Virus record (IMG/VR): IMGVR_UViG_3300022753_000059
Strand: one strand, 5' to 3'
DNA: 64,000 nucleotides
DNA from: an uncultured virus (IMG/VR IMGVR_UViG_3300022753_000059)
Taxonomy: Duplodnaviria > Heunggongvirae > Uroviricota > Caudoviricetes
Shown here piece by piece: positions 3,037 to 64,000 of this stretch (position 1 is the stretch's first letter; the number at the start of each line of letters is the position of its first letter). Below the pieces are notes generated by a model. The model had not been told where the DNA came from and did no database searches. It was given only the letters and a program-made list of their open reading frames with translations. Both the position numbers and the translations under genes were made by a program.

Positions 3037-3406
3037 TTCTCCACAATCCCATTTCAGTATAAATCTTGTTCATAGAGAGTGTGAATTGTGAGAACTGTTT
3101 GTTAGACAGTACGCGGACGTTTACACTTGTATCGGAATATTGTTTCAATATCCTTACGATTGTTTTCACTCTCGTTAAGTGGAAATGCGCCACGTGAATG
3201 CAGTCAAGACGCTCTTGCACAGCGTCATTGTCAGTTTCCAGCCCAATGTGAATTGACGTTAGAGCTTCATCAATCGCTTCCGAACACAAATTTACATAGT
3301 GTCGGAGGGCTGGTGTGTTAGGTGTCCGTCCTGCTACTGGAATCCACCACATAGCAAGAGTTTCGACCGCTCTGTAAAGCGAAGATTGAAAGACTGTTCG
3401 AGCCAT
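3005..3406 (-). CDS. avd: DGR accessory variability determinant (Avd-like four-helix bundle)
   Basis: 133-aa helical ORF between VR and TR; C-terminal GLW resembles the Avd GxW motif. Confidence 0.75.
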   Translation of the reverse strand: MARTVFQSSLYRAVETLAMWWIPVAGRTPNTPALRHYVNLCSEAIDEALTSIHIGLETDNDAVQERLDCIHVAHFHLTRVKTIVRILKQYSDTSVNVRVLSNKQFSQFTLSMNKIYTEMGLWRNATLQRKRSN

Positions 3407-3503: not shown

Positions 3504-3526
3504 AGCGCGGTTGAAAGAACCGCGCT
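3504..3526 (-). promoter_or_regulatory. DGR target-recognition hairpin downstream of VR1
   Basis: Sense strand AGCGCGGTT-CTTTC-AACCGCGCT, perfect 9-bp stem just after the target stop codon. Confidence 0.85.
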
Positions 3527-3531
3527 GTTTC

Positions 3532-6500
3532 CTAAAATGCGCACACCGCCCGACCCACGCCACTGTAAAACTTGTTGCTGTTGCCGAAGTAGCCATTGGA
3601 GAAGTAGATGAGCCATGCGTAAGTCTGGCCGTACTCAGAACTACTCCAGCGGTGAGAGGACGTGAAATTGGTCATTACTCCATTGTTTATGGCCGTTGCG
3701 AAGATGTTAAGATTCGATGCAAGACCTTGGCGATAATACCAATATTGACGTGCCAATTCACCAGAAGCAGGGAGATACCAGTTATGGGCTTTGAACTGGG
3801 GTGCCAATTCTTCACCGTCCATAACCTTTGGCTCGTATGCGTAACAGTACGAAGCTGCTGGCCAGTAATACTGCTGATACTTCGATGCGTTACCGTTGGT
3901 GGCGATAATCTCATTGATGAGTTGACGCAAATTAGCAATCTCAGTCTGAACCATTCGCCCACTGGAGTATTGCGCACTTGGGATTGATAACCCTGCTGCA
4001 TCCAGTACGTTGTTGCGATGAGCTATGATAGCGAGAGTATGATGCAGACCAGTAGGAACTGATTCGCCCTCGTTTACTCCAGCTCCAGCCAAATCGTACA
4101 TAGCCGAAGTCAGCGTTCTCAATCCAATATCACCAGCACCAGTGTTAGCGGCAAATCCAGTCTTGAATCCGTATCTGTCACCATTGTCGGGGTCACGGTA
4201 GTTACTGTCCTCAATATACCACGTGGAGTTGTTAATCGTTCCAGCCTCCAAACCAGAAGAAGAAAACTCAGTAAGCGATGGAATATTATAGACATTGCTG
4301 ATACCATCGAAAGTGATGCCAGTAATACCATTCGTATTATCACCACTGTACAAGCCCCACGGTGCCGATGTAGATGTTCCAAGAGTCGTAATATCCTCCA
4401 GGGCCACCATACGTCTGTCTGGTATGCCTTCTGCCTTGTCAATCTCACCGATATAGAAGCAGATGCCGATTACAGACTTCAATGGGTTGAGCATATCACT
4501 ATACGAACCGTCTGAAAACACGTAGTCACCAAGCTGAGCTGGACGGAGATAGAGATAAAGGTTCTTTGATACCGTTATCGTTCTGTCTGTAGTCACAATG
4601 GTACATGTCAGAGGAATCGTCAACGCTGTCTCACTGATTCGATGAACGGTGACGACTCCAGTATTGGCATCCACCGTAGCATAAGTAGAAGTCGGTAATG
4701 ACCATGTGATAGACGTGAAGTTGTTGGCATTCGGAGAGTTTGGAATGATGGTAAACTTTCTTGTTCCAGCCTCACGGAATGTATTGTCACCACCAATCTG
4801 CGCACTGCTGATAGAACGCTGAATGTATGAGATATACAAGTCGTTGTTCTCATCATCAATGTCGCCAAACTTCTCAAACAGTGCCTTCTTCAAATCAAAG
4901 GTCATGTATTCAGTTGACTGCAAGGTGATACTTCCAGTGATTCTGACATTCTCGATACCGACAAGCCACCACAAGAAATCAGCAGTTACATCCGTCCATG
5001 CCACATCGTTCACTCGCAAGTTGCTGATTTGTCTTGTAGGATCAGTCTCATTGAACTTAGCATCATACAGCTCTGCGATGGTCTGGTACAAGTCAAGTGA
5101 ACCAACATTGTCACCAATAACGAATGACGTTAGGTATGTATAGGCATCCAGCGACAGAATCGAAAGATTAGGTAAGTCGCTGATTTCCAACGATGTAAGA
5201 TAACCACCTAACTTAATGGTTGAGAGTAACTTAGCGGTCGGGAACAACACAGAAGTAATCTGAGTGCCACGAAGATCAATGGAAGTCAAACGAATACAGT
5301 TCGATAAATTCAGCTGGCCACCCAATCCACTTTCTCCATGAAGGTCGATGGATGTAATGAGCGGAGTGCCTACTATCAATCGGCTTGGACGAAACTCTGG
5401 AGCATTTGTTGGCGTGGCGATAATGTTCACAAGACGCTCACCATTGATGGTAAAGTCGAGGTCTGGCTTTACTGAAAGGTCGCCCAAGTTACCGAATGAA
5501 CGGTAATAGTTACCACCCTTCAAACCGCACACTGTATCACCCAGGTTGCCGCTCTCATCAATCACAAAGTGATAAGTCTGGTTCGGTGCAACCCTAACAT
5601 GCGGATTACGCAATGTCTGGCCAACACGAGCGGTCGGATAGAGATACTGGTGCGGCACTACATCCAGGACTACGGTAGGACTGCTACCGTTGATACGAGG
5701 ATAGGTATTAAAACCAAAACCGTTGTCGCCATTCAACGCAAACTCACCGTATGCAGCGTATGAAGAAGCATAGATAAGCCTACGCTTGATGTATTGACGC
5801 TCCGATGCCAGCTGATCACCAAGAGACTGAGTAATCGGCTTAACAGAACGGTCACTTACGAATCCAAGCGATGTCGGGTATTCATAACGAATACGAGCTG
5901 TCTCATTATAAGCAACGGCTGGGAAATATTCCTGAATAGAGAAGAAATACTTCTGGAATGCTCCCCAAGCGGACTTCTCAATGCCATTGCTCTGGTCATT
6001 GGCCGTAATCAAATTGGTCATTCCAGTAAGAATCTCATTCATCATGGATGCCAGTTCATTATTGCCACCTTCCCACATCAGCTCAATAAGATTAAAGAGC
6101 ACATTGTTATTGCCCTCAGTGTACAGCAGCTCATTGGACTCAGAATATGGGTGCATACGATCAATATAGTATGGTTTAATCTGATAGCCAGAGTTATCCG
6201 TCTTGAATATCGTGTCAAGGTCATCACCGTGCATTTCAATGAGGTGCGTTGCAGGGTCAAGAACGTAGTACGTATTCTTTGAACAGTTGTCGGTTCCTGC
6301 AAGAAGGAAATTTACGAATGCGTAGTGGAACATCAACGAGCGTGTTCTGAAATAGTTGCCAATATTTGCCTTTGCATCAGCTACAATAGCGGCAATAAAG
6401 GCTGCGTTCAAATCATCCCAGGCACCAACTGATATACCACTGATTGCAGATGGATAAAGGGAATTAAGATTCTTTTGCTGATAGGCGTTATTAACCTTCA

Positions 6501-9500
6501 AACCAGCAGGAACCCAGCTGCCATCAACAAAATCATAACGATAAAGGTCATACATAGAAGCACCACCGCCACTCTGAGTCATCCAGTATTGCTTTGTCGT
6601 ATCAAGCCCTGGGTCATCAACAAATGCCGAATAATTGCCATCAACGTATGGAGTGATCATCGGATTGTGCATGAACAACCAATTCCAAGCATCCTTGTAA
6701 TATTCGATTGTCTCATCTAACGGCTGATCTTCTACGTGTCCGTTTTCGTCATCGGAATCGTATGTCGCACCAGCATCGAAATCAAGGTTGCCATCACCGT
6801 TGTATTCAAAATATTCTTCCCCGACATTGTATGTTACCTTTTCATCCCAAGGCACACGCATATCTGTCAATGGCTTATTATTATCAGAACCTTCAAGCAT
6901 GGCAAAGTCCTGGTGTACACTACTGTCATAACCCCAAGTCGGCTTATCCATCTTACCAGGGCCAAATGTTCCAAGGCCGTGGAATACTGGCTCAGAATCT
7001 CCAGGTCTCTGGATAAAATAAAGGAATGGACGCTCGATAACAGCTACACGAGCCTTTGAGTTCGCTTGCTGCATCGTATTCTTACCAACAATGGAAGTGT
7101 GAAGAAGATTATAAAGTTCGGTTGCTCCTTGTTTATGACTTTGCATAGAAGAAGCATAATTAATTTTCAACACAATCTTCTTTGCAGCTGGAGAGTCATC
7201 TGTCAGTTGGTATTTCATGCCATGATCAACGCCATTACCGTCAACCCAACCATCATTGGTAATTTTGTTACCATTAGAGTCTTTTGACTTATCAATGTTC
7301 CATTGCTGATTCCAATAGTAATACGTCTTAGCAGTAGAACCCTGGCCCTTACATGGAAGCATACCATTAATACGCCCAATCGTACCACTATGAGCATTAT
7401 CTGGAGTACCGTCTGCATTCAACATCGAAATCTCAAGCCATCCAGTCTGATCATCCTGCGATGTGTGGTTCGGTTCATAACCATGCCATACAAGAACATT
7501 ATACTTCTCTTTGGCCTTTGTGTAACTAATAACACCATCCTCCAAGATGTCATTCGCTATACGGAAAGCAATCTTCTCAGAAGATGTAGGAAGCGTACTG
7601 CGATAGTCGTTCATACACTCTTCTGCGGAAAGAACTTTCTTGTAACAACGTATAGAATAAATGTCGATGTCTGCATCAACCTGGCCGATGCGGATTCCAC
7701 CATGCCCAGCATTGGAAATAAACTCATTGGCATTGGAGATCTCAAATGGGAACTCACGATTGATGACACCGTTGACGAAGATTCGTACAAGAGCCACCGT
7801 TACATTGCTGGTGGTCGATGAACGTAAAGCATGAACAACATTGATAGCAATGTGTGTACGCTTTCCTTCCTCCCAGCCAAAGTTCTGGTCAACTTCTGTA
7901 GATGCGCTTCGAGTAAACAAGAAGCCATCGAGAGGTCGCATGAACAGACCAAGCGGTTTACCAGTTGCAGCAACTGTAGAGCAAATCTGGAGAATCGGAT
8001 CAATCTCGTTAGTGATATTGCGAACCTTGAAGTCTAACTCAAGTGTCATACTGGAAGCCGTATTGCTCTTGAATGCCTCCCACGGCTCGTATGGAATCGT
8101 CAAATACTGGCCAGCAAGAATACGGAGTATGCGCTGTCCGCTCTCATCAGATACCCAGCCATCGTTCACAAAGCCAAAATTCTGGAATACGGCACTATTA
8201 CCATTTCCGTCAACGACTTCAACATTGTCTTGGGCCGCATTAAGAATACGAGCTGGATTAGCCTCACTATTGTTACGCACCTTCGGATTCAAGAAGAAAT
8301 CGGCACCAGTAGTAGGGCTAAACTTTTCGGTATTGTCAACCGTAATGATTTCCACATCGCTGCCAGTGCTTTCCTCCAGGAAGTTGACCTCTGTATTACC
8401 AGATTTGCGGAACACCTTTAAGTAGCCGTACACAGTATCATCAACGCCATTTTCAATTTCAATTGTGGTAATGACATGCTGCTGCGTCTGAGGTGCCACG
8501 TTCTGTTCCAATCGAAGATACTCAGTATCGCCATCAAAGTTACCAATGACAACTGCAATCTCCATATTGTCACCAGAAGGATTAAACACAGCATAGTCAA
8601 AGAGGGTAGTCTGCTCATAGTTGACCACGTTCTTTTTCAGATTCTGGATGAGTAAATATGGCGTATTGTCCTCAGAATCCACTACTACCATGAATGAGTT
8701 AAAGATATGCTCAGATTCCAATGAATTACCGTCACCATCCACACAAGTCAACCATGACTCAATGGTATGTACTCCATGAGTAATTACCTTACACAACTGA
8801 GAAGCTGTATCGGTAATGGCAGAAGGTGTAAATGTTGATGTGGTATAGGTAGTCGTACCCACCGCAACCTCAATCTCACGATAGCCATCGCCTCCAGTTC
8901 CGCTAATCTTCATGTGAAGCGTCTTAGCAACGCCAGCACCATAGATATAATATGAAGGCTGGAGGTAGTTGGTGGTCACTGGAATATGGTAGTCAGAAGC
9001 CATTTCCAGTCTCAACGATGTCAGCACAACTGAATCGAAGATGATGTAGTTCGAGTTAGAGCCAAAGGACTCATCCGTTACATACACACGGACACGGTTG
9101 CTGCCAGTTGCTAAGAATGCCGTAATGTCAATCTCGTCATAGGTTGCAGACGCGGCCTTTGATGCCAGAGCCATAGAACCTTGGGTAGTCCATTGGCCGT
9201 TAGCGTATGTCTGGATGTAGAGCGTACCACTGTTACCAGTGTCATAACCTCCAGTCGTACTGGTGAACAAAAGATGCAGCTTAACGATTCCAGTGATGCT
9301 TACCAGACTGGTGGTACTGTCTGTAGTGCGTAGAAGCACCTCAGTACCTTCCGCTGTATAAGGAAGCGTCACCTCACCATCGCCATCTGGAGTGTAAGTC
9401 TGGGAACCCATCTTAACACTCCTCACACTCTGTTGGTTCTCCTGCACAGCTCTAACCAGCGTCTTAAATTCTTCCGCTGTAAGCTTCTCAGAAGAAGGAA

Positions 9501-9570
9501 TACTCTCTGTAGCCGCTTGCTGACTGGCATTGTTGGCTTTTTCGAGCAAACCAGAAATGTCTATTGCCAT
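3532..9570 (-). CDS. DGR target 1: 2012-aa putative receptor-binding/tail protein (LamG-like, CotH-like, LRR, Ig-like, C-terminal C-type-lectin-like fold)
   Basis: C-terminus WYLPASGEL...WSSSEY...RAVCAF holds VR1; LRR-like LNLSNCIRLTSIDLRGTQIT; Ig-like ITWSLPTSTYATVDANTGVVTV; lies in the tail module. Confidence 0.85.
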   Translation of the reverse strand: MAIDISGLLEKANNASQQAATESIPSSEKLTAEEFKTLVRAVQENQQSVRSVKMGSQTYTPDGDGEVTLPYTAEGTEVLLRTTDSTTSLVSITGIVKLHLLFTSTTGGYDTGNSGTLYIQTYANGQWTTQGSMALASKAASATYDEIDITAFLATGSNRVRVYVTDESFGSNSNYIIFDSVVLTSLRLEMASDYHIPVTTNYLQPSYYIYGAGVAKTLHMKISGTGGDGYREIEVAVGTTTYTTSTFTPSAITDTASQLCKVITHGVHTIESWLTCVDGDGNSLESEHIFNSFMVVVDSEDNTPYLLIQNLKKNVVNYEQTTLFDYAVFNPSGDNMEIAVVIGNFDGDTEYLRLEQNVAPQTQQHVITTIEIENGVDDTVYGYLKVFRKSGNTEVNFLEESTGSDVEIITVDNTEKFSPTTGADFFLNPKVRNNSEANPARILNAAQDNVEVVDGNGNSAVFQNFGFVNDGWVSDESGQRILRILAGQYLTIPYEPWEAFKSNTASSMTLELDFKVRNITNEIDPILQICSTVAATGKPLGLFMRPLDGFLFTRSASTEVDQNFGWEEGKRTHIAINVVHALRSSTTSNVTVALVRIFVNGVINREFPFEISNANEFISNAGHGGIRIGQVDADIDIYSIRCYKKVLSAEECMNDYRSTLPTSSEKIAFRIANDILEDGVISYTKAKEKYNVLVWHGYEPNHTSQDDQTGWLEISMLNADGTPDNAHSGTIGRINGMLPCKGQGSTAKTYYYWNQQWNIDKSKDSNGNKITNDGWVDGNGVDHGMKYQLTDDSPAAKKIVLKINYASSMQSHKQGATELYNLLHTSIVGKNTMQQANSKARVAVIERPFLYFIQRPGDSEPVFHGLGTFGPGKMDKPTWGYDSSVHQDFAMLEGSDNNKPLTDMRVPWDEKVTYNVGEEYFEYNGDGNLDFDAGATYDSDDENGHVEDQPLDETIEYYKDAWNWLFMHNPMITPYVDGNYSAFVDDPGLDTTKQYWMTQSGGGASMYDLYRYDFVDGSWVPAGLKVNNAYQQKNLNSLYPSAISGISVGAWDDLNAAFIAAIVADAKANIGNYFRTRSLMFHYAFVNFLLAGTDNCSKNTYYVLDPATHLIEMHGDDLDTIFKTDNSGYQIKPYYIDRMHPYSESNELLYTEGNNNVLFNLIELMWEGGNNELASMMNEILTGMTNLITANDQSNGIEKSAWGAFQKYFFSIQEYFPAVAYNETARIRYEYPTSLGFVSDRSVKPITQSLGDQLASERQYIKRRLIYASSYAAYGEFALNGDNGFGFNTYPRINGSSPTVVLDVVPHQYLYPTARVGQTLRNPHVRVAPNQTYHFVIDESGNLGDTVCGLKGGNYYRSFGNLGDLSVKPDLDFTINGERLVNIIATPTNAPEFRPSRLIVGTPLITSIDLHGESGLGGQLNLSNCIRLTSIDLRGTQITSVLFPTAKLLSTIKLGGYLTSLEISDLPNLSILSLDAYTYLTSFVIGDNVGSLDLYQTIAELYDAKFNETDPTRQISNLRVNDVAWTDVTADFLWWLVGIENVRITGSITLQSTEYMTFDLKKALFEKFGDIDDENNDLYISYIQRSISSAQIGGDNTFREAGTRKFTIIPNSPNANNFTSITWSLPTSTYATVDANTGVVTVHRISETALTIPLTCTIVTTDRTITVSKNLYLYLRPAQLGDYVFSDGSYSDMLNPLKSVIGICFYIGEIDKAEGIPDRRMVALEDITTLGTSTSAPWGLYSGDNTNGITGITFDGISNVYNIPSLTEFSSSGLEAGTINNSTWYIEDSNYRDPDNGDRYGFKTGFAANTGAGDIGLRTLTSAMYDLAGAGVNEGESVPTGLHHTLAIIAHRNNVLDAAGLSIPSAQYSSGRMVQTEIANLRQLINEIIATNGNASKYQQYYWPAASYCYAYEPKVMDGEELAPQFKAHNWYLPASGELARQYWYYRQGLASNLNIFATAINNGVMTNFTSSHRWSSSEYGQTYAWLIYFSNGYFGNSNKFYSGVGRAVCAF
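3540..3662 (-). repeat. DGR variable repeat 1 (VR1)
   Basis: Ungapped 123-bp match to TR; 18 mismatches, 17 at TR adenines. Confidence 0.97.
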
Positions 9571-34545: not shown

Positions 34546-34573
34546 CACCACAAAAGTGAAACAAAAGCAATTT

Positions 34574-35161
34574 ATGGCAAAGAAAAATCAACTCACAACA
34601 AGCGACTATCTGGAGTATAGCGAATATGAACGGCTCCTGGAATGTCTGCACAAGGACGGTAAGCTGTTATGGGAACTCTACGCAAGAATTTCCTTCTGTA
34701 CAGCTTGTCGGGCATCTGATGTACTTAATTTCAGATGGAAAGATATTCTTGACAAGGATTTCCTCAATGTTACAGAGCAAAAGACTGGAAAGACTCGCGC
34801 CATCAAGATAAACGGAACTGTCAAGAGGCGCATACGGCTACTCTATGAACTAATGGACTCTCCAGAAAAGAACGACTACATCTTCAAGAGTCCGTACACT
34901 GGAAGGTCTCTCACTATCCAGTGTATCAACAAGCAGCTCAAGGAGTTCAAGTGGAAGTACAAACTCAACATTGACCACTTCTCCACCCATACATTCCGTA
35001 AGACATTCGGACGCTACGTTTATGAAACAAACAACCGTAGCGCAGAAAGCCTTATCTTACTCAACAAGATTCTGAACCATACGAGCATCCAGATTACCAA
35101 GACTTACATCGGTATCACGCAGGACGAGATCAACAATATCTTCGACTCCATCAAGTTCTGA
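34574..35161 (+). CDS. Tyrosine recombinase (catalytic domain only)
   Basis: RASD, K, HTFRKT, LNH, TKTYI catalytic residues; about 195 aa. Confidence 0.92.
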   Translation: MAKKNQLTTSDYLEYSEYERLLECLHKDGKLLWELYARISFCTACRASDVLNFRWKDILDKDFLNVTEQKTGKTRAIKINGTVKRRIRLLYELMDSPEKNDYIFKSPYTGRSLTIQCINKQLKEFKWKYKLNIDHFSTHTFRKTFGRYVYETNNRSAESLILLNKILNHTSIQITKTYIGITQDEINNIFDSIKF

Positions 35162-36669: not shown

Positions 36670-37181
36670 TTCTTGAAAAACTCTCAAAGGAAAAGCTCAT
36701 AGAAGCTCTACACAAACCAATCATGGAATGCTCTGAGGAAGAAATCAGATTCGTGTTCCACATTTTTGGATTCGACCTCAAAGAAGCTTGCTTCAATGAT
36801 AACATCGGAATGAATTTCGAGGTGCATTACAAGCGCGTGTACATCGTGCGTGTCGTGTGTACATTATCTCATCTTCTCAGTTTCGAGAACGAGTACATCG
36901 ACTTTGGCGACAAAACGCATGGAATCTCAATGGGCCACACTGAGACATTGGCAGAGACTATGGTGGTGTTCATCAACATGTTCACGCCCAACCTCCTCCA
37001 GTCTGCTGGATATGAAATCAAGTATGACCCAGAAAACTCTCTGTTTGAAAATCTGGAAGAGGCTCAGGATTATCTCAAGACCATCCAGGAAGAGGCTCAG
37101 AAGATTATCAGCGTGAACCATCCAGACCCAGTTCCAGCCCCAACCCCTAAAAAAGAGAATCCAGATGAAGCAACCAATTGA
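36666..37181 (+). CDS. Hypothetical protein
   Basis: ATG 36666, in operon. Confidence 0.7.
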   Translation: MILEKLSKEKLIEALHKPIMECSEEEIRFVFHIFGFDLKEACFNDNIGMNFEVHYKRVYIVRVVCTLSHLLSFENEYIDFGDKTHGISMGHTETLAETMVVFINMFTPNLLQSAGYEIKYDPENSLFENLEEAQDYLKTIQEEAQKIISVNHPDPVPAPTPKKENPDEATN

Positions 37182-38067
37182 TTTAGTCATTCCATACGTA
37201 AACTACACTGATGAGGAATGGCAGCAAACATTCATCGCTACATGTGAGCAAAACAACATCACACCAGCACCAGAAAGATGGTGCGATATGGGTACTCTGG
37301 TGTATTTGTTCAGAGGCGTTGCTCAGTATATGCCCTGGGTGAGAACGGTTCATCTTCTCGTTGAACGTGAAAGCCAGGTGCCAAAATGGATTGACCGCTC
37401 CAAGGTAAACATCGTGTACCACCATGACATCATACCTTCATGGAACCTTCCGACATACAATTCACAGTGCTTTGAATTGTTCCTTCACAAAATCAAAGGA
37501 CTCAGCGACTACTTCTTGTACGGAAACGATGACATTTTCCCATTGCAGCCAATGGAGCCAGAGGATTTCTTCGACAAGGACACGATGAGGCCCAAGATAA
37601 GAGCATTCGTATCGAATGTAAGCATTATCGACACGTACACTTTTGCACTCCATAACAGCGAAAGATTTGCTCGCAGAATGTTGGAAAGCGGAGAAGTGAA
37701 CCTTGACAAATCATTTAGGTTCGGACATTCCATCAACCCAATGTGCAAGGCTACCTGGCAGAAAATCTGGGAATTTGATGAGAACGCCATAAAAGGCTCC
37801 CTTACGACATTCCGAGACAGCAGGAACATGAACCAGGACGTACACCAATGCTACCATTATCTGAGCGGAAACTACACCAGAAGCAACCGAAAGACAATGT
37901 ACACCAATGTCAAAGATATGCAGAAAGTCCTGGATGGCATCCGCAGCACCGATGTACAAATGCTCTGCATCAATGACACGGCAGTTGACAACATAGAGCA
38001 AGTTTCAATGATTATTAACTTTGAGCTTCAAAAGAAGTTCCCAGAAAAATGTAAATACGAATTATGA
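37165..38067 (+). CDS. Stealth-family sugar-phosphate transferase
   Basis: IDLVIPYVN, YMPWVRTVHL, LPTYNS..FE..LHKIKGLSDYFLYGNDD, LCIND (CR1-CR4-like). Confidence 0.9.
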   Translation: MKQPIDLVIPYVNYTDEEWQQTFIATCEQNNITPAPERWCDMGTLVYLFRGVAQYMPWVRTVHLLVERESQVPKWIDRSKVNIVYHHDIIPSWNLPTYNSQCFELFLHKIKGLSDYFLYGNDDIFPLQPMEPEDFFDKDTMRPKIRAFVSNVSIIDTYTFALHNSERFARRMLESGEVNLDKSFRFGHSINPMCKATWQKIWEFDENAIKGSLTTFRDSRNMNQDVHQCYHYLSGNYTRSNRKTMYTNVKDMQKVLDGIRSTDVQMLCINDTAVDNIEQVSMIINFELQKKFPEKCKYEL

Positions 38068-38904: not shown

Positions 38905-39213
38905 ATGAATTTCGGACAAGCAATTGAAGCAGTAAAGCAAGGAAAGCTTGCAGCTCGTAAGGGATGGAATGGTAAGGGCATGTTTATCTTCATGCGCCCA
39001 GAGTGTGAACTGACAGCAGAAACAGTGGTTCTGAAAGTCCAGTCGCTCCCATCTGCATTCAAGGAATGGGTCGCTAAGAACTACAGCGACTCACAGAAGG
39101 ATGTCATCAAGTTCACTCCGTACCTCTGTATGAAAGCAGCTGACAACACCGTTGTGAACGGTTGGCTGGCTTCTCAGACCGACATGCTATCTGAGGACTG
39201 GGAGATTCTGTAA
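38905..39213 (+). CDS. DUF2829-family protein (Tad2-like anti-defence candidate)
   Basis: [25 protein letters not shown] and [13 protein letters not shown]. Confidence 0.85.
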
Positions 39214-54196: not shown

Positions 54197-54724
54197 ATGA
54201 AAGAAGATATAACTGCCGCTGAGAAATTGCGGAACATTGCGAATTGGCTTGACTACCAGAACGAGAACTTTAACGACCGTATGACATCCATCCAGATGAT
54301 TGAGCAAGTGTATGACGCTTGTAACGAATGCGACCTTGAGTTTGCCGATGATCTTGACTGGGAGGATGAGGACGATGAGGAGTTCAAGCTGGCGAAGAAA
54401 ATCAACGAGATATTTGGCTATCCATACTACATTCTCCACCAGCCAGATTTCGAGTTCTACATTCCAGAGTGGGCCTTGAATTACATGGTGAATGGTACGT
54501 CCGATAACTTGAATGAAGAAGAGATTGCCGTTGCGGATGCCTGGATGAAAGAGACGTTCCCGAATGGATTCACTATGGAAGTGGATTGGCACAATTGCAA
54601 GGAACTTGATTTCTGGCCAGCTTTCGGAACACGTAATCCGAATGCGCTCACAGATCGTGGCGAGTCGCCATTCCAGGGATGCAAGACGTACAACTGTTTA
54701 TTCTATAATGCCAAACCACAATAA
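54197..54724 (+). CDS. Acidic hypothetical protein
   Basis: 175-aa ORF. Confidence 0.75.
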   Translation: MKEDITAAEKLRNIANWLDYQNENFNDRMTSIQMIEQVYDACNECDLEFADDLDWEDEDDEEFKLAKKINEIFGYPYYILHQPDFEFYIPEWALNYMVNGTSDNLNEEEIAVADAWMKETFPNGFTMEVDWHNCKELDFWPAFGTRNPNALTDRGESPFQGCKTYNCLFYNAKPQ

Positions 54725-54726
54725 CA

Positions 54727-55302
54727 ATGAAGCATAAGGTTTCCATCAAGACGTTCAACAATGGCGTTTTGTCTTTGAGTGAGTTCAAAGATGTAAGGCT
54801 GTCAACTAAAGATGTGGTTGGTATCGTCCTGCAAACTGAAACAATAGGTCTGATTCTGGCACCTCCAGTCTGGAAAGAGCCTTGGGGTGATGATAAGATT
54901 TGCGTTGAAGTGCAAGATGAATACAATTTCATTGATGAAGCGGTTGCACTCTCTGAGTTGAGTGGCCTCCAGCTTACAAAGAACATCATTGAAGCGAACA
55001 AGGACTTTCATGGAATGTTTGCTGCAAAGCGGTGTTTTGAGTATGAACGAGCTGGGCTACAGTGGTATATGCCATGTCTCTATGAGCTTTCCATGCTTGC
55101 GGCCTACAAGAACGAAATCAATGAGGTTCTTGTTAATCTTAGAATGCCAGAAACGCAACTTGGTCAAGAGTGGAACTGGTGCAGTTCTGAATATAAATTC
55201 AACGGTTCCTGGGCTATCAACTTCCTTACTGGAAATTACGGTGTAGGTGGTAAATTCTGTCTTGGTACGGTAAGAGCCGTATCATTTTATGAAAAATTAT
55301 AA
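54727..55302 (+). CDS. C-type-lectin-like (DUF1566-like) protein, paralogue of DGR target 2 with a diverged VR-like segment
   Basis: Shares GIVLQTETIGLILA and GMFAAKRCFEYE.AGLQWY with 55324-56037; ends WCSSEY...VRAVSF. Confidence 0.85.
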   Translation: MKHKVSIKTFNNGVLSLSEFKDVRLSTKDVVGIVLQTETIGLILAPPVWKEPWGDDKICVEVQDEYNFIDEAVALSELSGLQLTKNIIEANKDFHGMFAAKRCFEYERAGLQWYMPCLYELSMLAAYKNEINEVLVNLRMPETQLGQEWNWCSSEYKFNGSWAINFLTGNYGVGGKFCLGTVRAVSFYEKL

Positions 55303-55323
55303 ACATTTTAATATCAATCATTT

Positions 55324-56037
55324 ATGGAACACAAGATTTCAGTTAAGACGTACAATGATGGTATCATGTCCGTCAATGAGTTCAAAAACGCAAACCTTAA
55401 CAAAAAGGAGGTTGCTGGTATCGTACTTCAAACCGAGACAATCGGGCTTATCCTGGCTCTGCCTATCTGGAAAGAAAAGTGGGGCGATGAGGATATTTGT
55501 GTTGACGTGAAAGACGAAGATGATTACATTGGTGAGTCTAAAGCGTTGACCACTCTGTGTGGCCTGGAAGCGACCAAGCGTATCATTGAGGCCCACAAGG
55601 ATTATGAAGGCATGTTTGCAGCGAAGCGTTGCTTCGAGTATGAGTGTGCTGGCCTCCAGTGGTATCTCCCAAGCCTTTACGAGCTGGGTATGCTGAGCGC
55701 ATTCAAGGAGGAAATCAACGCTGTGCTGGATGAGTTGAGCCTTCCAGAAGCAAAGCTGGGTGATGATTGGAGCTGGAGTAGTTCTGAGTACTACCAGACT
55801 ATCGCATGGGGCATCAACTTCTCCAATGGCTACTTCGGCAACTTCTCCTACAGCTACTACAAGTTTTACAGTATCGTAGTTCGGGCGGTGTGCGCATTTG
55901 AGTCACTGCGAGGCGTTCTTTCAACGCCGAGCGAAAAGACAAGTCTTTCCGACCTCACAGATGAGGAGCTGGCCGCTGAGTTCAAGAAGCGTGGCTTTGA
56001 AGGCGAGCTGACCATGAAGAAAACCATTCAGATCTAA
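55324..56037 (+). CDS. DGR target 2: 237-aa C-type-lectin-like (DUF1566-like) protein with an internal VR
   Basis: WYLPSLYEL...WSSSEY...RAVCAF, then 46 more residues; contains VR2. Confidence 0.92.
   Translation: MEHKISVKTYNDGIMSVNEFKNANLNKKEVAGIVLQTETIGLILALPIWKEKWGDEDICVDVKDEDDYIGESKALTTLCGLEATKRIIEAHKDYEGMFAAKRCFEYECAGLQWYLPSLYELGMLSAFKEEINAVLDELSLPEAKLGDDWSWSSSEYYQTIAWGINFSNGYFGNFSYSYYKFYSIVVRAVCAFESLRGVLSTPSEKTSLSDLTDEELAAEFKKRGFEGELTMKKTIQI
55772..55894 (+). repeat. DGR variable repeat 2 (VR2), remote target
   Basis: Matches TR 2787-2897; 9 substitutions outside the AAC run, all at TR adenines; 12-bp in-frame insertion at the AAC run. Confidence 0.95.
55912..55928 (+). promoter_or_regulatory. 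DGR hairpin downstream of VR2 (inside the CDS)
   Basis: GGCGTT-CTTTC-AACGCC, same GTTCTTTCAAC core and spacing as the VR1 hairpin. Confidence 0.85.
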
Positions 56038-56042
56038 CGAGT

Positions 56043-56264
56043 ATGGTACTGAACATCGAAACTCAGAACGTAGAAAGCACCCTGGCACTTGTCCAGGAGT
56101 GCTTTCTTAATCAAAATGTATGCGTCCGTAAGGTCTATGATAAGACTGCGGACTTTGAAATTAAACCCACTCCCGATGCGGAGCCTGGTGAGTTTGTCTA
56201 TGGAGCTGCAAGTTTGCTTGAGCTTGCTGGCGAGATTCCTCTTTCAAGCATACGTATTTACTAA
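56043..56264 (+). CDS. Hypothetical protein
   Basis: ORF in operon. Confidence 0.6.
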   Translation: MVLNIETQNVESTLALVQECFLNQNVCVRKVYDKTADFEIKPTPDAEPGEFVYGAASLLELAGEIPLSSIRIY

Positions 56265-56284
56265 TCCAAATAACCAAACGAAAC

Positions 56285-56710
56285 ATGGAGAAAATACAAG
56301 ACGCAATCAAGCGATTGCACGAAGAAATCAAAAACATAGGCGACTTCTACGATGATAATGAAATCACCGTAATTTTGAAAGATATGGGTGACTTCAATTT
56401 AGAGAAGATTGCCGATGAGTTTGTTGAACACGAGTGGGAGCATCCGATTAGGCGTTGCAGCTGGTGTGGCGATCTTATGGTGGAGGGCTATCTGCTTGGT
56501 GATGATTATGCGTGTTGTGATGAATGCCGTAATGAAATCTATAAGCGTGATTGCGGAGCCACAACAGATGAAGAAGCCTACATTCTTTATCTCAAGGATT
56601 GTTATATGCTGGAGGATGAAGATATTGAAGGCTTGACAAGTGAGCAAATATCAGAAAAATATAATGACTACGATGTTTCAGATGATGTGTTCTGGACATC
56701 CTGGGAATAA
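56285..56710 (+). CDS. Acidic Cys-containing hypothetical protein
   Basis: CSWCG...CCDEC. Confidence 0.7.
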   Translation: MEKIQDAIKRLHEEIKNIGDFYDDNEITVILKDMGDFNLEKIADEFVEHEWEHPIRRCSWCGDLMVEGYLLGDDYACCDECRNEIYKRDCGATTDEEAYILYLKDCYMLEDEDIEGLTSEQISEKYNDYDVSDDVFWTSWE

Positions 56711-58706: not shown

Positions 58707-59055
58707 CTTTTACGAAATCGTGAAGCAAGTGAAGCGACACGAGCAGGAGGAGCTGACTAAGGCTCTGAAAGCATGGGGTGGAGCATTCAATTTTGAGCAA
58801 CACCCAGATACCGACCGCCCTATCATTGCCGTGAACATGGATAACTGTGAACCAGAACCCCAGGATGTCTATGTGAACAGTGTGGCAGTTGATGAGGACG
58901 GTTATATGACTCTCAAGTGTATTGGTAAGCTGGATGGGCAGGATTATGAAGTTGAGCCAGACGATGTGTTCGCTGGTCATCTTGAATACGTAATCTCGTA
59001 CATTCCAGAGACTGACACGGTTAAAGATGTGACTACGCCTTTTGTGCTTAGTTAA
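58693..59055 (+). CDS. Hypothetical protein, distant paralogue of 63270-63842
   Basis: NF.E.V...K..EQ.E...A..A.GG pattern shared with 63270-63842. Confidence 0.7.
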   Translation: MKCSNFYEIVKQVKRHEQEELTKALKAWGGAFNFEQHPDTDRPIIAVNMDNCEPEPQDVYVNSVAVDEDGYMTLKCIGKLDGQDYEVEPDDVFAGHLEYVISYIPETDTVKDVTTPFVLS

Positions 59056-59075
59056 TAAAAATTATTCGCTTTTTG

Positions 59076-59119
59076 AGCCGTGGTTAGCAACTGTGGAAGC
59101 TGGCCACGGCTTTTCTTTT
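59076..59119 (+). terminator. Intrinsic terminator
   Basis: AGCCGTGGTTAGC...GCTGGCCACGGCT followed by TTTCTTTT. Confidence 0.75.
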
Positions 59120-59215
59120 CAAATGTTAAAGTGGACGAATTTTCACACCTTAACACAACCTTTCCACTATTCATATAAAACAACCAATTAATAACAATAA
59201 ACAAAACGAAACGTC

Positions 59216-60901
59216 ATGGGATATTGTAATTCAGACATTAGCCACAACTGGGCGCACCAGTTGAAGAGCAGTCAAGGTGGAAGCAGCAATTTTAGCTTCC
59301 AGGGTAAGAAAATCTATAGCTACAGCACGGTCATCGGCCAGATTGTAGAAGTGAACAAGCAGACAATCTACCTATTGAATACTGGTAGTGCGTCCAATAC
59401 AACGAGCAAGCACCAGAGCCTTGTTTTCGGTGCTATTCCTAACGATGCCATTAAGTTCTCCATATCATTGGGCGACTTCCGTTGGAATTGGCGTGGCTAT
59501 GGCGGCTGGAATGGTGATTTTGACGAGAAAGAGCAAATCAGCCTGGTCAAGAAGTACATTGTTGCTCTTTATAAGTACATCGAGTTGTTCGAGGATTCAA
59601 AGACAATCTCTACAGAGCAGAACTTCTCTTTGAAGTGGTACGATGAAGCACAGCGTTTCTGTGATGTTACGAAGTGTACGACACTCAAGAAGCTGTACAA
59701 AAACTGGAATGCCGATTCTATCCAGATGTTCCATAACATCCAGAAGCCAGAGCAGCTGAGACGTATGCTACATGCGCTGAACAGCGGTGAACGAGACATG
59801 AAGCTCCTGGTTGACCTTACGCTTGGTAAGGGCGTGTATGCTGAATACGTGACGAGAACTAAGGGCGCACGTTCTGGCCAGAATACGCGAGACATCAACA
59901 AGCGTTTGGGCTTCGAGTCAAGAAGTTGCAGTTATCAAGCTTATTATGAGCCGTACAAGCTTTTGTACCTCAACAAAAATGAATGTAAAATCCTGCATCG
60001 AAACCGTACATTCCTGGAGCATACAGCTTATGGACGTGTTGAAGGCGGCTGGGATCGCAAGACGATTGAGAAGTACCGCAAGCAGGGAATCCTTATCCAG
60101 AAGATGTGTGAGACGAGGCGTGAGAACCTTATCAAGAATCTGGAGTATGAATGTATCAGTATGCGGAACAGACGGATGCAAGAGGCGAAAAAACGTCTGG
60201 AGAAATATATCGGTATGACTGGCTGGGCCTCATCCTCATGGTATAACGTCAAAGGTTTCACATCGTTCAATTATAATGGTACGGTGTATGACCAGTTCGG
60301 CTCCTACAACCGTTCTCGTGAACTGAGCATGGCTGAGTACGTTGAGTTCACGAAGATGAATAAGGAACAGCAACAAGAGTTCATCCGCACTAAGCAAGAC
60401 TGGATGCTTGCAATCCTCCAGGAAGAATTGCGTGAGCATAACGAATGGAAGCGTCATCAAGAGCTGGCAGAGATTGAACGCCAGGAAAAGCTGCGCATTC
60501 GTGAAATGAAGAAGGATTACATTGAGGCTAAGAAGGCAGAAGGTGACAGCGGTCTCATCCAGCTGTTTCACGAAGGTCTGATAGACGGTGGCTTCTATGG
60601 TAAGGGTGCATCGTTCTTCCACGGTGGAAACGCTCTCCTGCGTGTCAATGAAAAGACGCAACGAGTAGAGACTTCCAAGGGCATTTTCGTTTCGTTTGTG
60701 GAATGTAAGCGTCTTTGGGTCATCGTGAATCGCTGGCACAATAACGGAACAACCTTCACTTCATCTGATGAGAAGGTACACTCTACTACACATGACTGGG
60801 ATATTTCATGTTACCAGGACGATATTATGATTGCTGGGTGCCACGCCATCCATTATTCTGAAATGGAGTACGCGGCTCGTCAGTTAGGTTTCATTTCTTA
60901 A
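59216..60901 (+). CDS. Hypothetical phage protein (561 aa)
   Basis: Long ORF; IYSYST.IG, SNTTSKHQ, IAGCHAI motifs. Confidence 0.85.
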   Translation: MGYCNSDISHNWAHQLKSSQGGSSNFSFQGKKIYSYSTVIGQIVEVNKQTIYLLNTGSASNTTSKHQSLVFGAIPNDAIKFSISLGDFRWNWRGYGGWNGDFDEKEQISLVKKYIVALYKYIELFEDSKTISTEQNFSLKWYDEAQRFCDVTKCTTLKKLYKNWNADSIQMFHNIQKPEQLRRMLHALNSGERDMKLLVDLTLGKGVYAEYVTRTKGARSGQNTRDINKRLGFESRSCSYQAYYEPYKLLYLNKNECKILHRNRTFLEHTAYGRVEGGWDRKTIEKYRKQGILIQKMCETRRENLIKNLEYECISMRNRRMQEAKKRLEKYIGMTGWASSSWYNVKGFTSFNYNGTVYDQFGSYNRSRELSMAEYVEFTKMNKEQQQEFIRTKQDWMLAILQEELREHNEWKRHQELAEIERQEKLRIREMKKDYIEAKKAEGDSGLIQLFHEGLIDGGFYGKGASFFHGGNALLRVNEKTQRVETSKGIFVSFVECKRLWVIVNRWHNNGTTFTSSDEKVHSTTHDWDISCYQDDIMIAGCHAIHYSEMEYAARQLGFIS

Positions 60902-60913
60902 AACGGAAGCGGT

Positions 60914-61813
60914 ATGGAAAAGTATTCTAAAGACATTATTTGCCTCGTCAACCAGCAAGTGTTTGGTGACGAAGAGGAGCATCAAATCGAAATGGAATTT
61001 TTCGATGGGTATGCTATATCTGTGAATTGTAGGTACGGACTTACGTACCCGATGCTCAAACACCTCAGTAAGCCTATGAAGGCAGAGGTGGAAAACTACA
61101 CTGGAAGGGAGCTGGAAAGCCCATTCGACATCGCTTTGATGTACGCAAAGCCCTTCAAGCTCCCGACTGATGCTCGTGCAGACAAAGAGCATGATTTCCT
61201 CATGTCTATTCTCACTGAACGCCAGGTCGAAGAGTTTGAAAGATTCTCTGAAAAGCTGGAAGAGCGCGAATATGTGTTGGTCTATTTCGACCTCAATACC
61301 GACTGTGGCATCAACTTCTACTATGGTGGTAAGTTCTTCAACGATGTGGATGCGGCTGAATATTTTGTCAACAAAGGCATCATCGGCCAGGACAAGATGT
61401 TGAACCCACATCATCCTTCTCATCAATATGTTGTAGATGAGCTGAGTATTGACAGCAATGCTAAGATCGAGCGCATTTATTTCGAGAAGAACTCAGAGGA
61501 GAATCACGAGTTCTATTACCTCATATCCAGGCCGCTTGATTTGGCTACGGACGTGGTTCTGATATGGAACCGTGGCGGTCACAGCAAGTTCAACCAGAAT
61601 GAGGTACGGTTCTTCAATGACAGCAAGGCCGCTGCTGCTTATGCGGCAAAGGCTAAAGCGCGAGAATTTGCAGAGGAGCTGGAGTCATTCGGTATCACCT
61701 GGAATATGGAGGAAATCAAGTTCTTCAATCATCTTCCGACTCTCTATTATAGCTTCAATGTATGGGGCAATGATGGCTACAATGTACATATTGTTCACGG
61801 TAAATATAAATAA
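60914..61813 (+). CDS. Hypothetical protein
   Basis: 299-aa ORF. Confidence 0.8.
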   Translation: MEKYSKDIICLVNQQVFGDEEEHQIEMEFFDGYAISVNCRYGLTYPMLKHLSKPMKAEVENYTGRELESPFDIALMYAKPFKLPTDARADKEHDFLMSILTERQVEEFERFSEKLEEREYVLVYFDLNTDCGINFYYGGKFFNDVDAAEYFVNKGIIGQDKMLNPHHPSHQYVVDELSIDSNAKIERIYFEKNSEENHEFYYLISRPLDLATDVVLIWNRGGHSKFNQNEVRFFNDSKAAAAYAAKAKAREFAEELESFGITWNMEEIKFFNHLPTLYYSFNVWGNDGYNVHIVHGKYK

Positions 61814-61818
61814 AGCCT

Positions 61819-62370
61819 ATGAATATTCGAGAATTGAGAAAGGCATTCCCTTTCATTACGACCGATGAATTGAAATATGCGGTCAAACATAACGAGTACA
61901 AGACTGAGAGAGGCTTCTTGAAGCGTATGGCACAAATCAATGCCAAATACGAAGAGAAGGCCAATCGTAAGGACATCGTATCTATCACTATCAAAATAGT
62001 GTGGAAGCGTTCAAGCGTGTGGGGCAGCAATCCTTACGCTGAATACTGGGTACGATACGTTGATGGAACCACCAACTATGGGAAAGGCTATACATGTAGC
62101 GGTTGCGGCTATGACAAGACATCAACTGTGATTGCCGAGATCTTCAACCAGGAGTTCTCTGGTATGTTGTACCGCAAGCGTCATTCCAGAAAGAAAGCCC
62201 CTTACGGCATCCGTATGGACGGATGGTTCCCATCGTTCTCTGGAGGTGTAGGAGAGAGTTGTTATGGCGCAATCTCCAGCTTCCTTGGTGGCCACTGGAA
62301 GCATGTGGCCTGGAGTGATAACTTCGACCAGTTCGAGGCTAATTTCAAATGTAAAAAGAAAGCAGCATGA
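61819..62370 (+). CDS. Basic hypothetical protein
   Basis: 183-aa ORF (SGCGYDKTS). Confidence 0.75.
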   Translation: MNIRELRKAFPFITTDELKYAVKHNEYKTERGFLKRMAQINAKYEEKANRKDIVSITIKIVWKRSSVWGSNPYAEYWVRYVDGTTNYGKGYTCSGCGYDKTSTVIAEIFNQEFSGMLYRKRHSRKKAPYGIRMDGWFPSFSGGVGESCYGAISSFLGGHWKHVAWSDNFDQFEANFKCKKKAA

Positions 62371-62687
62371 ATACGCCCATCTTTACATTGTCTGCCACCC
62401 ACTTGAGCAACGAGGATGAAATCTTCGATGCTCTTGCGGTGGTGGATTATGAATCCGAGGACGCTGCTATCGGTGCCGCTCGTGAACTGGCTGGGAAACT
62501 GGCCAGCAGCTATGATGACGTTTGCCAGGTTACTGTGTACGGTGGCGAATGGCGCACTCCTGGAGGTGATGTGCATGGGGAAACCTACGACATATTCACA
62601 ATCTCCAGTAAATCTAAGGAAAAGACTATGGAAGCCCGAAAAAAGGCTGGATATGTTCAACTTGAAGTAAACGAATACATTGGTTAA
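62367..62687 (+). CDS. Hypothetical protein
   Basis: ATGA-coupled ORF. Confidence 0.7.
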   Translation: MNTPIFTLSATHLSNEDEIFDALAVVDYESEDAAIGAARELAGKLASSYDDVCQVTVYGGEWRTPGGDVHGETYDIFTISSKSKEKTMEARKKAGYVQLEVNEYIG

Positions 62688-62688
62688 T

Positions 62689-63078
62689 ATGGAAAGAACA
62701 AAACTATGGCCATGTCCGTTAGACGAGAAGAATCTTTGCACCGACTGGATTGAAGAACTTTTCGAGGATAATGGCATCCTGCGAACACCTAATGACGGTC
62801 ATAACGGAGTGAATCAGTTTATCGCTTTCGTTGAAAAACGGCTCTGCTGCATAACGTGGGAGCATGGAAGCAACCAGCTGTCATTCAATGTGCTTCCAGA
62901 CCATTTCGGAGCGTTCTATGCTGATGAATGCGCTACCAAGGCAATCGAGTTTATGAAAGCGAAGGTTGCTGAGATTGAATCGTGTGACAATGGAAGTGGA
63001 AACAAGATTTCCGTCCAGTACAACATCGAGCAGAATGATCGTATTGATTTCTTCTTTTACTGGGATAATTGTGATTAG
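62689..63078 (+). CDS. Hypothetical protein
   Basis: ATG 62689. Confidence 0.7.
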   Translation: MERTKLWPCPLDEKNLCTDWIEELFEDNGILRTPNDGHNGVNQFIAFVEKRLCCITWEHGSNQLSFNVLPDHFGAFYADECATKAIEFMKAKVAEIESCDNGSGNKISVQYNIEQNDRIDFFFYWDNCD

Positions 63079-63080
63079 CT

Positions 63081-63266
63081 ATGGCATACGTAAACGACTT
63101 TGGTGACTCTGTTGCAATCAATATGAGTCACCAGCAAATGAAGGATCTGAAAGACTTGCTGAATGAGGCCGTAACATCTGAATCTGTTGATGGCCACAAG
63201 AAGGAAAGCTATCAGAAACTTTATTACGCGATTGACAATTTTGAATACGAACAACAAAACGGTTAG
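63081..63266 (+). CDS. Small hypothetical protein
   Basis: ORF in operon. Confidence 0.6.
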   Translation: MAYVNDFGDSVAINMSHQQMKDLKDLLNEAVTSESVDGHKKESYQKLYYAIDNFEYEQQNG

Positions 63267-63269
63267 ACT

Positions 63270-63842
63270 ATGTTTCATACAAATTTCAAAGAACTTGTAG
63301 ATAAGATTAAGCTGCAAGAACAAAGGGAGGTGAAGATGGCCGCTCTTGCTCATGGCGGTAGGTGTGTCATGGAGCAAGATGAAGATTCACAGCTTCCTCG
63401 CATTACGGTATATTTCCAGGGATTCACTGATAGCGTTGACCAGGTTGATGTTACTGAGGTGATTGTGGAAAATGACAAGTTATTCATCAAAGGCAAGATG
63501 TATGAGTCATGTGAAGAGGTGGAGTTTCCAGCTGAGCAAGTATATCCTGGAGAGCTTCACTACGTCCTTGATTCCATTAAGCCGACCAAAGAATTAGATT
63601 CGACAATGGCATACAACTACAACGTATTTGAAGATACGATTGACCTCCAGGAGATTTCATCCCAGGCGGTAAGCGAGATTATGAACAAGATTGACTGTGA
63701 CCGTTTCACGGCATTTGAAATGTGCCAGAAGTGGGCCGATGAGTTTACGGAGAAATTCCGAAACCATAATTGGGGTGACGATGACATGTCGTACTACGAT
63801 CACATCGACTTCTTTATCGAACAAAAGCTGAAAGAATTATGA
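63270..63842 (+). CDS. Hypothetical protein, distant paralogue of 58693-59055
   Basis: 190-aa ORF. Confidence 0.75.
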   Translation: MFHTNFKELVDKIKLQEQREVKMAALAHGGRCVMEQDEDSQLPRITVYFQGFTDSVDQVDVTEVIVENDKLFIKGKMYESCEEVEFPAEQVYPGELHYVLDSIKPTKELDSTMAYNYNVFEDTIDLQEISSQAVSEIMNKIDCDRFTAFEMCQKWADEFTEKFRNHNWGDDDMSYYDHIDFFIEQKLKEL

Positions 63843-64000
63843 AAGCGGAACTTGACAAGATTAAAGAGTTCTCGCTCTCCATGAGAGAAGAGGACTGTGT
63901 GCGCATGTTTGGCGAAAGCGTTGGCCACCACCTATGGTCAAAGTACACCAGCTTCAGCAATGATTTCATGCGCTGGTATTGTTATCTGGACAAAGATAAT
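63839..64000 (+). CDS. Partial hypothetical protein (runs off the right edge)
   Basis: ATGA-coupled start MKAELDKIKEF... Confidence 0.55.
   Translation, partial: MKAELDKIKEFSLSMREEDCVRMFGESVGHHLWSKYTSFSNDFMRWYCYLDKDN

Follow-up and report, generated by a model that had tools for sequence, protein, structure and literature searches.

The gene at positions 55324–56037 (plus strand) raises the question of whether a small protein encoded far from the tail genes is a second target of the DGR whose reverse transcriptase (RT) lies at the opposite end of the same sequence, and what such a protein might do. The sequence analysed, referred to here as the window, is the whole stretch of 64,000 nucleotides of the uncultured virus record IMGVR_UViG_3300022753_000059, a gut phage of the Bacteroides type. 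The original prediction, made from the sequence, was that one RT and one template repeat (TR) serve two very different targets. The anatomy of the template and variable repeats and the alleles present in related populations agree with this: the targets are a 2012-amino acid protein of the tail module (target 1) and a 237-amino acid lectin-fold protein (target 2), and the variable region of the latter, VR2, is very probably a genuine second, non-adjacent target of the single DGR seen in the window.

The left end of the window carries, on the minus strand, a complete DGR cassette that closes a myovirus-type tail module, in which PHROGs identified tail sheath, tape measure, baseplate hub and portal. 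The RT (1546–2733, minus strand) matched Pfam RVT_1 (E = 2.6e-12) and PHROG 1423, 'reverse transcriptase' (E = 7e-64), with sub-threshold matches only to other RT classes in NCBIfam. It possesses the motifs IGNLTSQ and FVDD, the former of the [ILV]GxxxSQ type that we take to be typical of DGR RTs. These family matches and motifs identify a DGR-type RT near the template repeat. The RT is a single ORF, the open frame of which extends upstream to 3036, through the TR. The TR itself, delimited by local alignment and codon-register reading, occupies 2787–2897 of the minus strand, or 2782–2897 with its IMH*-type 3' end (2782–2799, CGGGCGGTGTGCGAACTT). It contains 38 A per 111 nt, an (AAC)4 run included, and is the sole template repeat within the window.

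The nearest cultured relative found was Bacteroides phage BS-TP1 (PQ571274.1), which infects B. salyersiae and has a genome of 111,694 bp; its major capsid protein is 63.7% identical to that of the window and its RT (gp25) 43% identical. An ORF of 133 amino acids (3005–3406, minus strand) separates target 1 from the TR, where an accessory (Avd) gene would be expected. It had no match in Pfam, NCBIfam or PDB sequences, was unlike gp26 of BS-TP1, and is a putative DGR accessory protein, assigned by position only. Target 1 (3532–9570, minus strand) stands at the end of the tail module, has an Lcl_C-like C-terminal domain according to Pfam, and is 27% identical to BS-TP1 gp27 over about 2000 amino acids. 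Its variable region, VR1, occupies 3540–3650, with an IMH at 3535–3552 and a hairpin at 3504–3526, all on the minus strand.

Target 2 lies 52.9 kb from this cassette on the opposite strand. VR2 had been placed at 55772–55894 (plus strand) as a match to TR 2787–2897 (minus strand), and alignment with codon register returned the same coordinates, both repeats running from GCTGGAG to GTGTGCG; with its IMH-type end (55882–55899), VR2 spans 55772–55899. Outside the AAC run, VR2 and TR share 99 ungapped positions, 30 of them A, and differ at nine. All nine differences fall on TR adenines, as claimed (hypergeometric p = 8.3e-6), leaving zero non-A substitutions. VR1, equal in length to the TR, differs from it at 17 positions, of which 16 are at A and one is T>G. 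Both variable regions are related to the TR as those of a DGR are, by differences almost only at TR adenines. When loci bearing a TR were compared with the window by blastn, three places only were matched, namely TR, VR1 and VR2.

The 3' end that VR1 and VR2 were said to have in common was also found, both ending in CGGGCGGTGTGCGCATTT, with the TR ending in ...GCGAACTT. The resulting contrast between the IMH (...GCGCATTT, found in the two VRs) and the IMH* (...GCGAACTT, found in the TR) is the asymmetry expected of a functional DGR target. A common hairpin core follows both VRs, again in line with the prediction, with the loop CTTTC in each. The VR1 hairpin (3504–3526) has a 9-bp stem and z = -4.6. 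That of VR2, GGCGTT-CTTTC-AACGCC, was recovered in the centroid fold at 55912–55928 (plus strand), has a 6-bp stem and begins 12 nt past the IMH, within coding sequence; the 69-nt piece that contains it does not fold more stably than shuffled sequences (z = -0.4). Fold analysis of the TR found no comparable hairpin. A distant orthologue keeps the CTTTC loop and has CTCGGCAAT/ATTGCCGAG as its VR2 stem, which amounts to two compensatory pair changes at the cost of two amino-acid changes; this apparent covariation in two lineages is suggestive. Internal VRs are described in the accessible text of Wu et al. 2018 (PMC5758913) as having an IMH constrained by coding sequence.

The predicted match requires correction in one respect, since the two repeats differ in length: VR2 comprises 123 nt and the TR 111 nt. 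The additional 12 nt (4 codons) all lie inside the AAC run, where VR2 has eight NNC codons (55837–55860), GGC AAC TTC TCC TAC AGC TAC TAC, against AAC AAC AAC AAC in the TR. The equal length that is canonical for TR and VR is thus found in VR1 and not in VR2, and plain copying of the TR as it now stands cannot have produced the VR2 allele of the window. All eight codons are nevertheless derivable from AAC by changes at A. Run length was counted in the 76 of 120 listed homologues that fit a motif bracketing the run: it was four codons in 66, five in seven, and six, eight (the window) and nine in one each. None of their 322 run residues was of a kind underivable from AAC (K, E, Q, M, W). An expansion by four codons is larger than the other run lengths typical among relatives of target 2, the single 9-codon relative apart.

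A template other than the visible TR, either a further TR beyond the window or an (AAC)8 TR that was ancestral and has since contracted, would account directly for eight codons in VR2 against four in the TR, and the window covers 64 kb of a genome of probably 104–122 kb, about half of which lies beyond it. This explanation is nonetheless very unlikely. VR1 of the same genome has a run of four codons, and (AAC)4 is present in the TR of the window, in the TR of a metagenome relative (L046) and in that of BS-TP1; the TR-flanked ends of contigs from runs X9 and X13 likewise contain four AAC units within the 30 letters shown. In BS-TP1, VR1 exceeds the TR of that genome by one codon, and the complete genome has one TR. 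Differences in length between TR and VR were reported in 25 of 372 DGRs (7%), with 74% of indels next to AAC, and the accessible text of that survey puts the AAC-adjacent indels down to template slippage in reverse transcription (Wu et al. 2018, PMC5758913). On the strength of the (AAC)4 TRs, the run spectrum in relatives, VR1 of BS-TP1 and this survey, the additional 12 nt most likely arose by RT slippage on the (AAC)4 run and would not be a sign of another template. The insert may alternatively be a duplication of GGCAACTTC plus one codon, although the spectrum of four to nine codons among relatives favours slippage on the run.

Searches with target 2 returned 494 homologues at E ≤ 0.001. 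Two proposed checks could be made on relatives, for A-biased divergence of VR2 and for an invariant TR. The 16 closest orthologues (91–100% identical) carry 16 distinct VR2 alleles and are almost invariant elsewhere. Variation was seen in 13 of the 16 AAC-codon columns, some with seven or more residues, in 5 of the 10 other VR codons with A at position 1 or 2, and in none of the 14 VR codons without A at those positions, so that within the VR it was confined to A-bearing codons. Outside the VR, 20 of 197 columns varied, mostly with two alleles. As to the template, one metagenome yielded a TR (L046) identical to that of the window, a VR1 (L047) that differs from it at A sites only, and a VR2 orthologue (L048; 88% identical over 834 nt) that is collinear with the TR and again differs at A sites only. 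These assembled contigs, taken across samples, support the conclusion that VR2 is actively diversified in the population.

Were VR2 instead a relic, a former target no longer rewritten, the variation among relatives would represent old standing diversity. A relic could explain why the VR2 allele of the window is out of register with the TR, and the variation is indeed known from assembled contigs across samples and not from reads within one sample. It would not be expected, however, that every one of 16 orthologues so nearly identical otherwise has a different VR2 allele with the non-adenine VR codons unchanged, nor that the IMH and hairpin remain intact and VR2 is free of non-A substitutions outside the run. 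A true non-target, the paralogue of target 2 described below, has by contrast lost all DNA similarity to the TR. We regard a relic as very improbable and treat VR2 as an active target in what follows.

The predicted gene of 237 amino acids was confirmed as ORF 55324–56037 in the ORF list, and its lectin-like fold was supported by an AF2 model and Foldseek. The tail that follows RAVCAF comprises 45 residues, one fewer than the 46 originally counted. Pfam Lcl_C/DUF1566 matched target 2 with E = 2.6e-6 and 28.2 bits, below the gathering score of 34.9 bits; precomputed annotations assign PF07603 to nearly every one of the 120 homologues listed, and an alignment profile of target 2 matched the Lcl-family chain 8q4e_A (E = 0.0024). 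Target 2 is accordingly assigned an Lcl_C (PF07603) domain of C-type-lectin fold with the VR at its C-terminal end. The AF2 model used was built from a diverse alignment of 50 rows (pLDDT 89.8, pTM 0.79); an earlier model from 73 close homologues (pLDDT 56.5) was discarded. In the model used, a disordered linker (199–205) joins a compact domain (residues 1–192) to a short module at the C-terminus, which has a helix at 213–222.

The best PDB matches of this model in Foldseek were the Bacteroides ovatus fimbrial tip protein 4eps (E = 3.7e-6, TM 0.58) and the C-terminal domain of Legionella Lcl, 8q4e (E = 2.7e-3); animal C-type lectins matched far less well. In BFVD the domain occurs in phage proteins of tail-fibre size and in small DUF1566 proteins, for example a 228-amino acid protein of a crAss-like phage (TM 0.69/0.71), and the ESM Atlas returned only DUF1566/Lcl_C-type clusters. 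The 8q4e structure is cited in the Legionella Lcl paper, and 4EPS-like DGR variable proteins of Bacteroides form 'domain group 1', 70% of which are prophage-encoded according to the available text of Macadangdang et al. (bioRxiv 10.1101/2024.11.15.621889). No literature joining 'HbP1' and DUF1566 was found. A prediction of a three-copy complex of target 2 scored 0.24, where the mark is 0.42, and counts neither for nor against such a complex. The C-terminal tail alone matched the LEM domain weakly (E = 0.02; 14.9 bits, where the cutoff is 24), which serves as a lead only. The first 30 residues of target 2 are hydrophilic, and its most hydrophobic stretch of 19 residues (30–48, mean Kyte-Doolittle 1.81) is modelled as buried beta strands; by our own reading of hydrophobicity and model, target 2 probably has no signal peptide.

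The setting of the gene is as first described, among small plus-strand hypothetical genes outside the tail module: it sits in a tight run of genes almost all without a family match, with gaps of 5–21 nt to its neighbours. The nearest recognised structural gene is about 25 kb away. The wider plus-strand block includes a dUTPase, an NAD-dependent ligase, an integrase-family ORF, a Stealth CR2 protein and a ROS/MucR-like regulator, a content compatible with an early or accessory region. A Tad2-like (anti-Thoeris) ORF, 16 kb upstream of target 2, is the nearest recognisable anti-defence gene. Scans of 51–60 kb found no sigma-70 promoter scoring above shuffles and no informative terminator at target 2. 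Immediately upstream of target 2 is a tandem paralogue of 191 amino acids (54727–55302, plus strand), 58% identical over residues 1–195. Its DNA has no match to the TR and no GC-rich IMH, and the protein has no C-terminal tail; it is therefore not a DGR target.

The arrangement in the window recurs in BS-TP1. The cassette of that phage has the same order, a target of about 2000 amino acids, an accessory gene, TR and RT, represented by gp27 (2187 amino acids), the four-helix-bundle protein gp26, the TR and gp25. As in the window, a small DUF1566 protein, gp76, is encoded 50 kb away on the other strand. The VR of gp76 is collinear with the TR, from which it differs within the repeat at A only, and the complete genome has just three stretches of TR-like sequence, namely the TR, the VR1 of gp27 and the VR of gp76. 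In contrast to target 2, to which it is about 31% identical, gp76 has its VR at the very C-terminus and no tail. The paper describing BS-TP1 (Gut Microbes 2025, PMC12694917) names gp27 as DGR target in the text available, and its main text contains no occurrence of 'gp76' or of mass spectrometry.

A counterpart of target 2 was present in a sheep-rumen Bacteroidaceae MAG (G002) as a gene of 231 amino acids, 47% identical, which shares with target 2 the MEHK start and the TDEEL...RKR tail. The VR of this gene and the TR of the window are 91% identical, and the gene adjoins others about 95% identical to window 58863–63859; a search of this incomplete MAG for an RT with one query found none. One 48-kb contig of a further data set (run X8) encodes an orthologue of target 2 and, 9 kb on, a second IMH-like site with a tail of the G002 type, so that at least one relative has two small VR-bearing lectin genes. 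Scanning with the IMH pattern recovered mostly unrelated DGR-like loci. Resemblance to the window beyond the IMH match of roughly 30 nt was seen in 1 of 26 loci from genome contigs and 4 of 39 metagenome loci, and among viral contigs the contig of G001 alone matched. A blastn search of phages with 54700–56300 gave no match, and a search of viral contigs with target 2 found no related locus. G001, the nearest record to the window, is a fragment of 41.7 kb that is 100% identical wherever the two were compared; assuming collinearity, it spans about 131–41864 of the window and contributes no sequence past it. Contigs from runs X9, X11 and X13 end at the edges of VR2; heterogeneity or low depth could produce such ends, and they were not counted as evidence. 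Runs X1–X7 contain 99% of the sequence words of the locus, and the runs listed for it include none of RNA.

With respect to function, our working guess is that target 2 would be a soluble, non-virion variable binder made during infection, to which we give a little less than even confidence; somewhat over a third is left to a virion-associated accessory adhesin and the rest to other roles. The intracellular, early role first proposed, for example as a binder of host defence proteins, is a possible reading of its position among small plus-strand genes and of the lack of a signal-like segment at the N-terminus. That the modelled fold is nearest to extracellular adhesin domains would count neither for nor against such a role decisively.

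The adhesin, a possibility that we consider somewhat doubtful, might be a decoration or tail-accessory lectin; it would be docked to the virion by the C-terminal tail and encoded outside the structural module, and both targets would then serve adsorption or adherence. Phage structural genes can lie outside the main structural module, and the nearest folds are those of a type V pilus tip protein (4eps) and of the C-terminal domain of Legionella Lcl, both extracellular adhesin domains. Phage tail-fibre proteins in BFVD share the domain of target 2, as does target 1, and a flexible linker with a short conserved C-terminal module would suit docking. This is opposed by the location of the gene, which is tightly packed among small plus-strand genes without annotation and lies about 25 kb from the nearest recognised structural gene, by the lack of the C-terminal tail in both gp76 of BS-TP1 and the fixed paralogue, and by target 2 itself, for which no structural PHROG or Pfam match was found.

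The soluble, non-virion binder might also be one member of an antibody-like repertoire in a Bacteroides phage lineage with genomes of roughly 108 kb. Such a repertoire would be composed of target 2, the fixed tandem paralogue and the further VR-bearing copy in relatives, with one or two members rewritten by the tail-fibre DGR, and could track molecules of the host or of rival phages in the infected cell or at lysis. We consider this unlikely. If it were true, the paralogue without an IMH would represent an 'archived' specificity and slippage on the AAC run would add variation in loop length.

In Bordetella phage BPP-1, A-to-N mutagenic retrohoming acts on a variable region of C-type-lectin fold (Mtd), with IMH and IMH* and a downstream hairpin. 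The relation of TR to VR, the specificity for adenine, the anatomy of IMH and hairpin and the hypervariation across populations are all observed in the sequences examined here. A retrohoming mechanism is presumed by analogy with the BPP-1 paradigm and published surveys. The RT, with the accessory protein, would copy a transcript of the TR into cDNA, misincorporating opposite template adenines, and the cDNA would replace either VR1, at the end of the 2012-amino acid protein, or VR2 in the 237-amino acid protein. Homing would be guided on the 3' side by the common GC-rich IMH and the hairpin behind it, and on the 5' side by plain homology. In this manner about 16–20 codons could be rewritten on the predicted ligand-binding face of the DUF1566/Lcl_C C-type-lectin-fold domain, and slippage on the (AAC)4 run would have added the four AAC-derived codons of the VR2 copy in the window.

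The anatomy of IMH and IMH* and of the downstream hairpin read in the window is like that of BPP-1. The BPP-1 target, however, is single, adjacent and part of the virion, whereas the window has two targets, which belong to the DUF1566/Lcl_C subclass of CLec proteins and are not Mtd-like. The original prediction implied that a remote, non-structural second target was new, and here it did not hold, as precedents exist in Quimbyvirus, in phage Shimadzu and in the survey of Wu et al. 2018. Quimbyvirus ('Quimbyviridae'), a Bacteroides gut phage, has a second VR distal to the structural module and on the opposite strand, which is read as non-structural in the accessible text of Benler et al. 2021 (PMC8008677). 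According to the same text, it resembles the window in that a single DGR serves two targets of the C-type-lectin kind, the first directly behind the tail genes, and it shows adenine-specific variation among near-identical genomes. It belongs to a different lineage, its RT is in three overlapping frames where that of the window is a single ORF, and the neighbours of its remote target are methyltransferases, a nuclease and a tRNA ligase, in contrast to the unannotated neighbours of target 2.

Roseburia phage Shimadzu likewise has a second VR, in orf43 (function not assigned), besides a tail-gene VR next to the RT. In the portion of Cornuault et al. available (bioRxiv 10.1101/575076), the second VR is experimentally shown to be diversified, and read analysis demonstrated diversification at both. 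Shimadzu is an unrelated temperate phage with a Firmicutes host, whereas the case in the window is known from assembled sequences. Non-adjacent targets were found in 45 of 372 DGRs by Wu et al. 2018 (PMC5758913), those associated with phages lying nearly all within 50 kb; at 52.9 kb, target 2 is slightly past this usual range. Two-target cassettes occur in small gut myoviruses (Baykov et al. 2023), and Roux et al. 2021 state that their own survey would miss remote targets.

With run lengths of four to nine codons from a 4-codon template, the window and its relatives clearly illustrate, in natural sequences, how a DGR can diversify length. The same layout in BS-TP1, which can be cultured, renders the question of the ligand, raised in 2019–2021, experimentally approachable. 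Every element of the finding has a precedent and the understanding of DGRs is unchanged; with its many natural alleles, the window joins Quimbyvirus and Shimadzu among the few phage cases in which a DGR also diversifies a protein encoded away from the tail module.

The substitutions in the two variable repeats were compared with the template repeat (TR; window 2787-2897, minus strand). Across both repeats, a single change affects a TR position other than adenine; it lies in VR1 (3540-3650, minus strand) at window 3554 of the same strand, where the TR reads GTT and VR1 reads GGT, and was not present in the VR1 of a metagenome relative (L047). Four of the nine VR2 substitutions (55772-55894, plus strand) located outside the run, that is, the (AAC)4 codons of the TR and eight NNC codons of VR2, are the same in VR1, all four being A to T changes that yield TAC or TTT. 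The run itself begins with GGC AAC in both repeats. Given that tyrosine is the most frequent run residue among homologues of target 2, selection for Tyr, Phe or Gly is a more probable origin of these matches than exchange between the VRs.

Target 2 (55324-56037, plus strand) is preceded by a tandem paralogue of 191 amino acids (54727-55302, plus strand; 58% identity, residues 1-195) that does not possess its C-terminal tail. Neither similarity to the TR in the VR-equivalent region nor a GC-rich IMH was found in this paralogue, which is a fixed copy adjoining the diversified gene.

Further small lectin genes bearing a VR were present in relatives. A sheep-rumen Bacteroidaceae MAG encodes one of 231 amino acids (L079 13023-13799, minus strand; G002:C15), 47% identical to target 2, with a VR exhibiting 91% identity to the window's TR. 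A contig from sequencing run X8 carries an additional such gene approximately 9 kb downstream of the target 2 orthologue. Carried onto the window, this spacing places the gene approximately 1 kb past the right end, so that a third DGR target may be present in this genome just beyond it.

At the left edge (window 1-253), a 126-nt unit is repeated in tandem without mismatch (2.0 copies, 100% matches). The repeat lies within an ORF (3-1124, minus strand) that extends past the window's edge, and G001, the closest public fragment, appears to terminate within it.

Two further genes of the plus-strand block gave family matches: an ORF at 38905-39213 resembles Tad2 (Thoeris anti-defence 2; Pfam E=1.5e-26), and one at 37165-38067 encodes a Stealth CR2 protein (capsule-type phosphotransferase family; E=3.6e-30). 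An integrase-family ORF of 201 amino acids (34556-35161, plus strand; Phage_integrase E=3.3e-18) encodes the catalytic domain only. The cultured Bacteroides phage BS-TP1 has been described as temperate, yet as lacking chromosomal homologues in databases (PMC12694917).

BS-TP1 possesses a second RT, gp79 (L080 10344-11606; PHROG 1423 in the BS-TP1 annotation). No homologue of gp79 was found in the window, nor any TR-like copy next to gp79 in BS-TP1. The gp79 gene lies 0.8 kb downstream of gp76, the small DUF1566 counterpart of target 2, and is followed by an unannotated, gene-free stretch of 1.35 kb.
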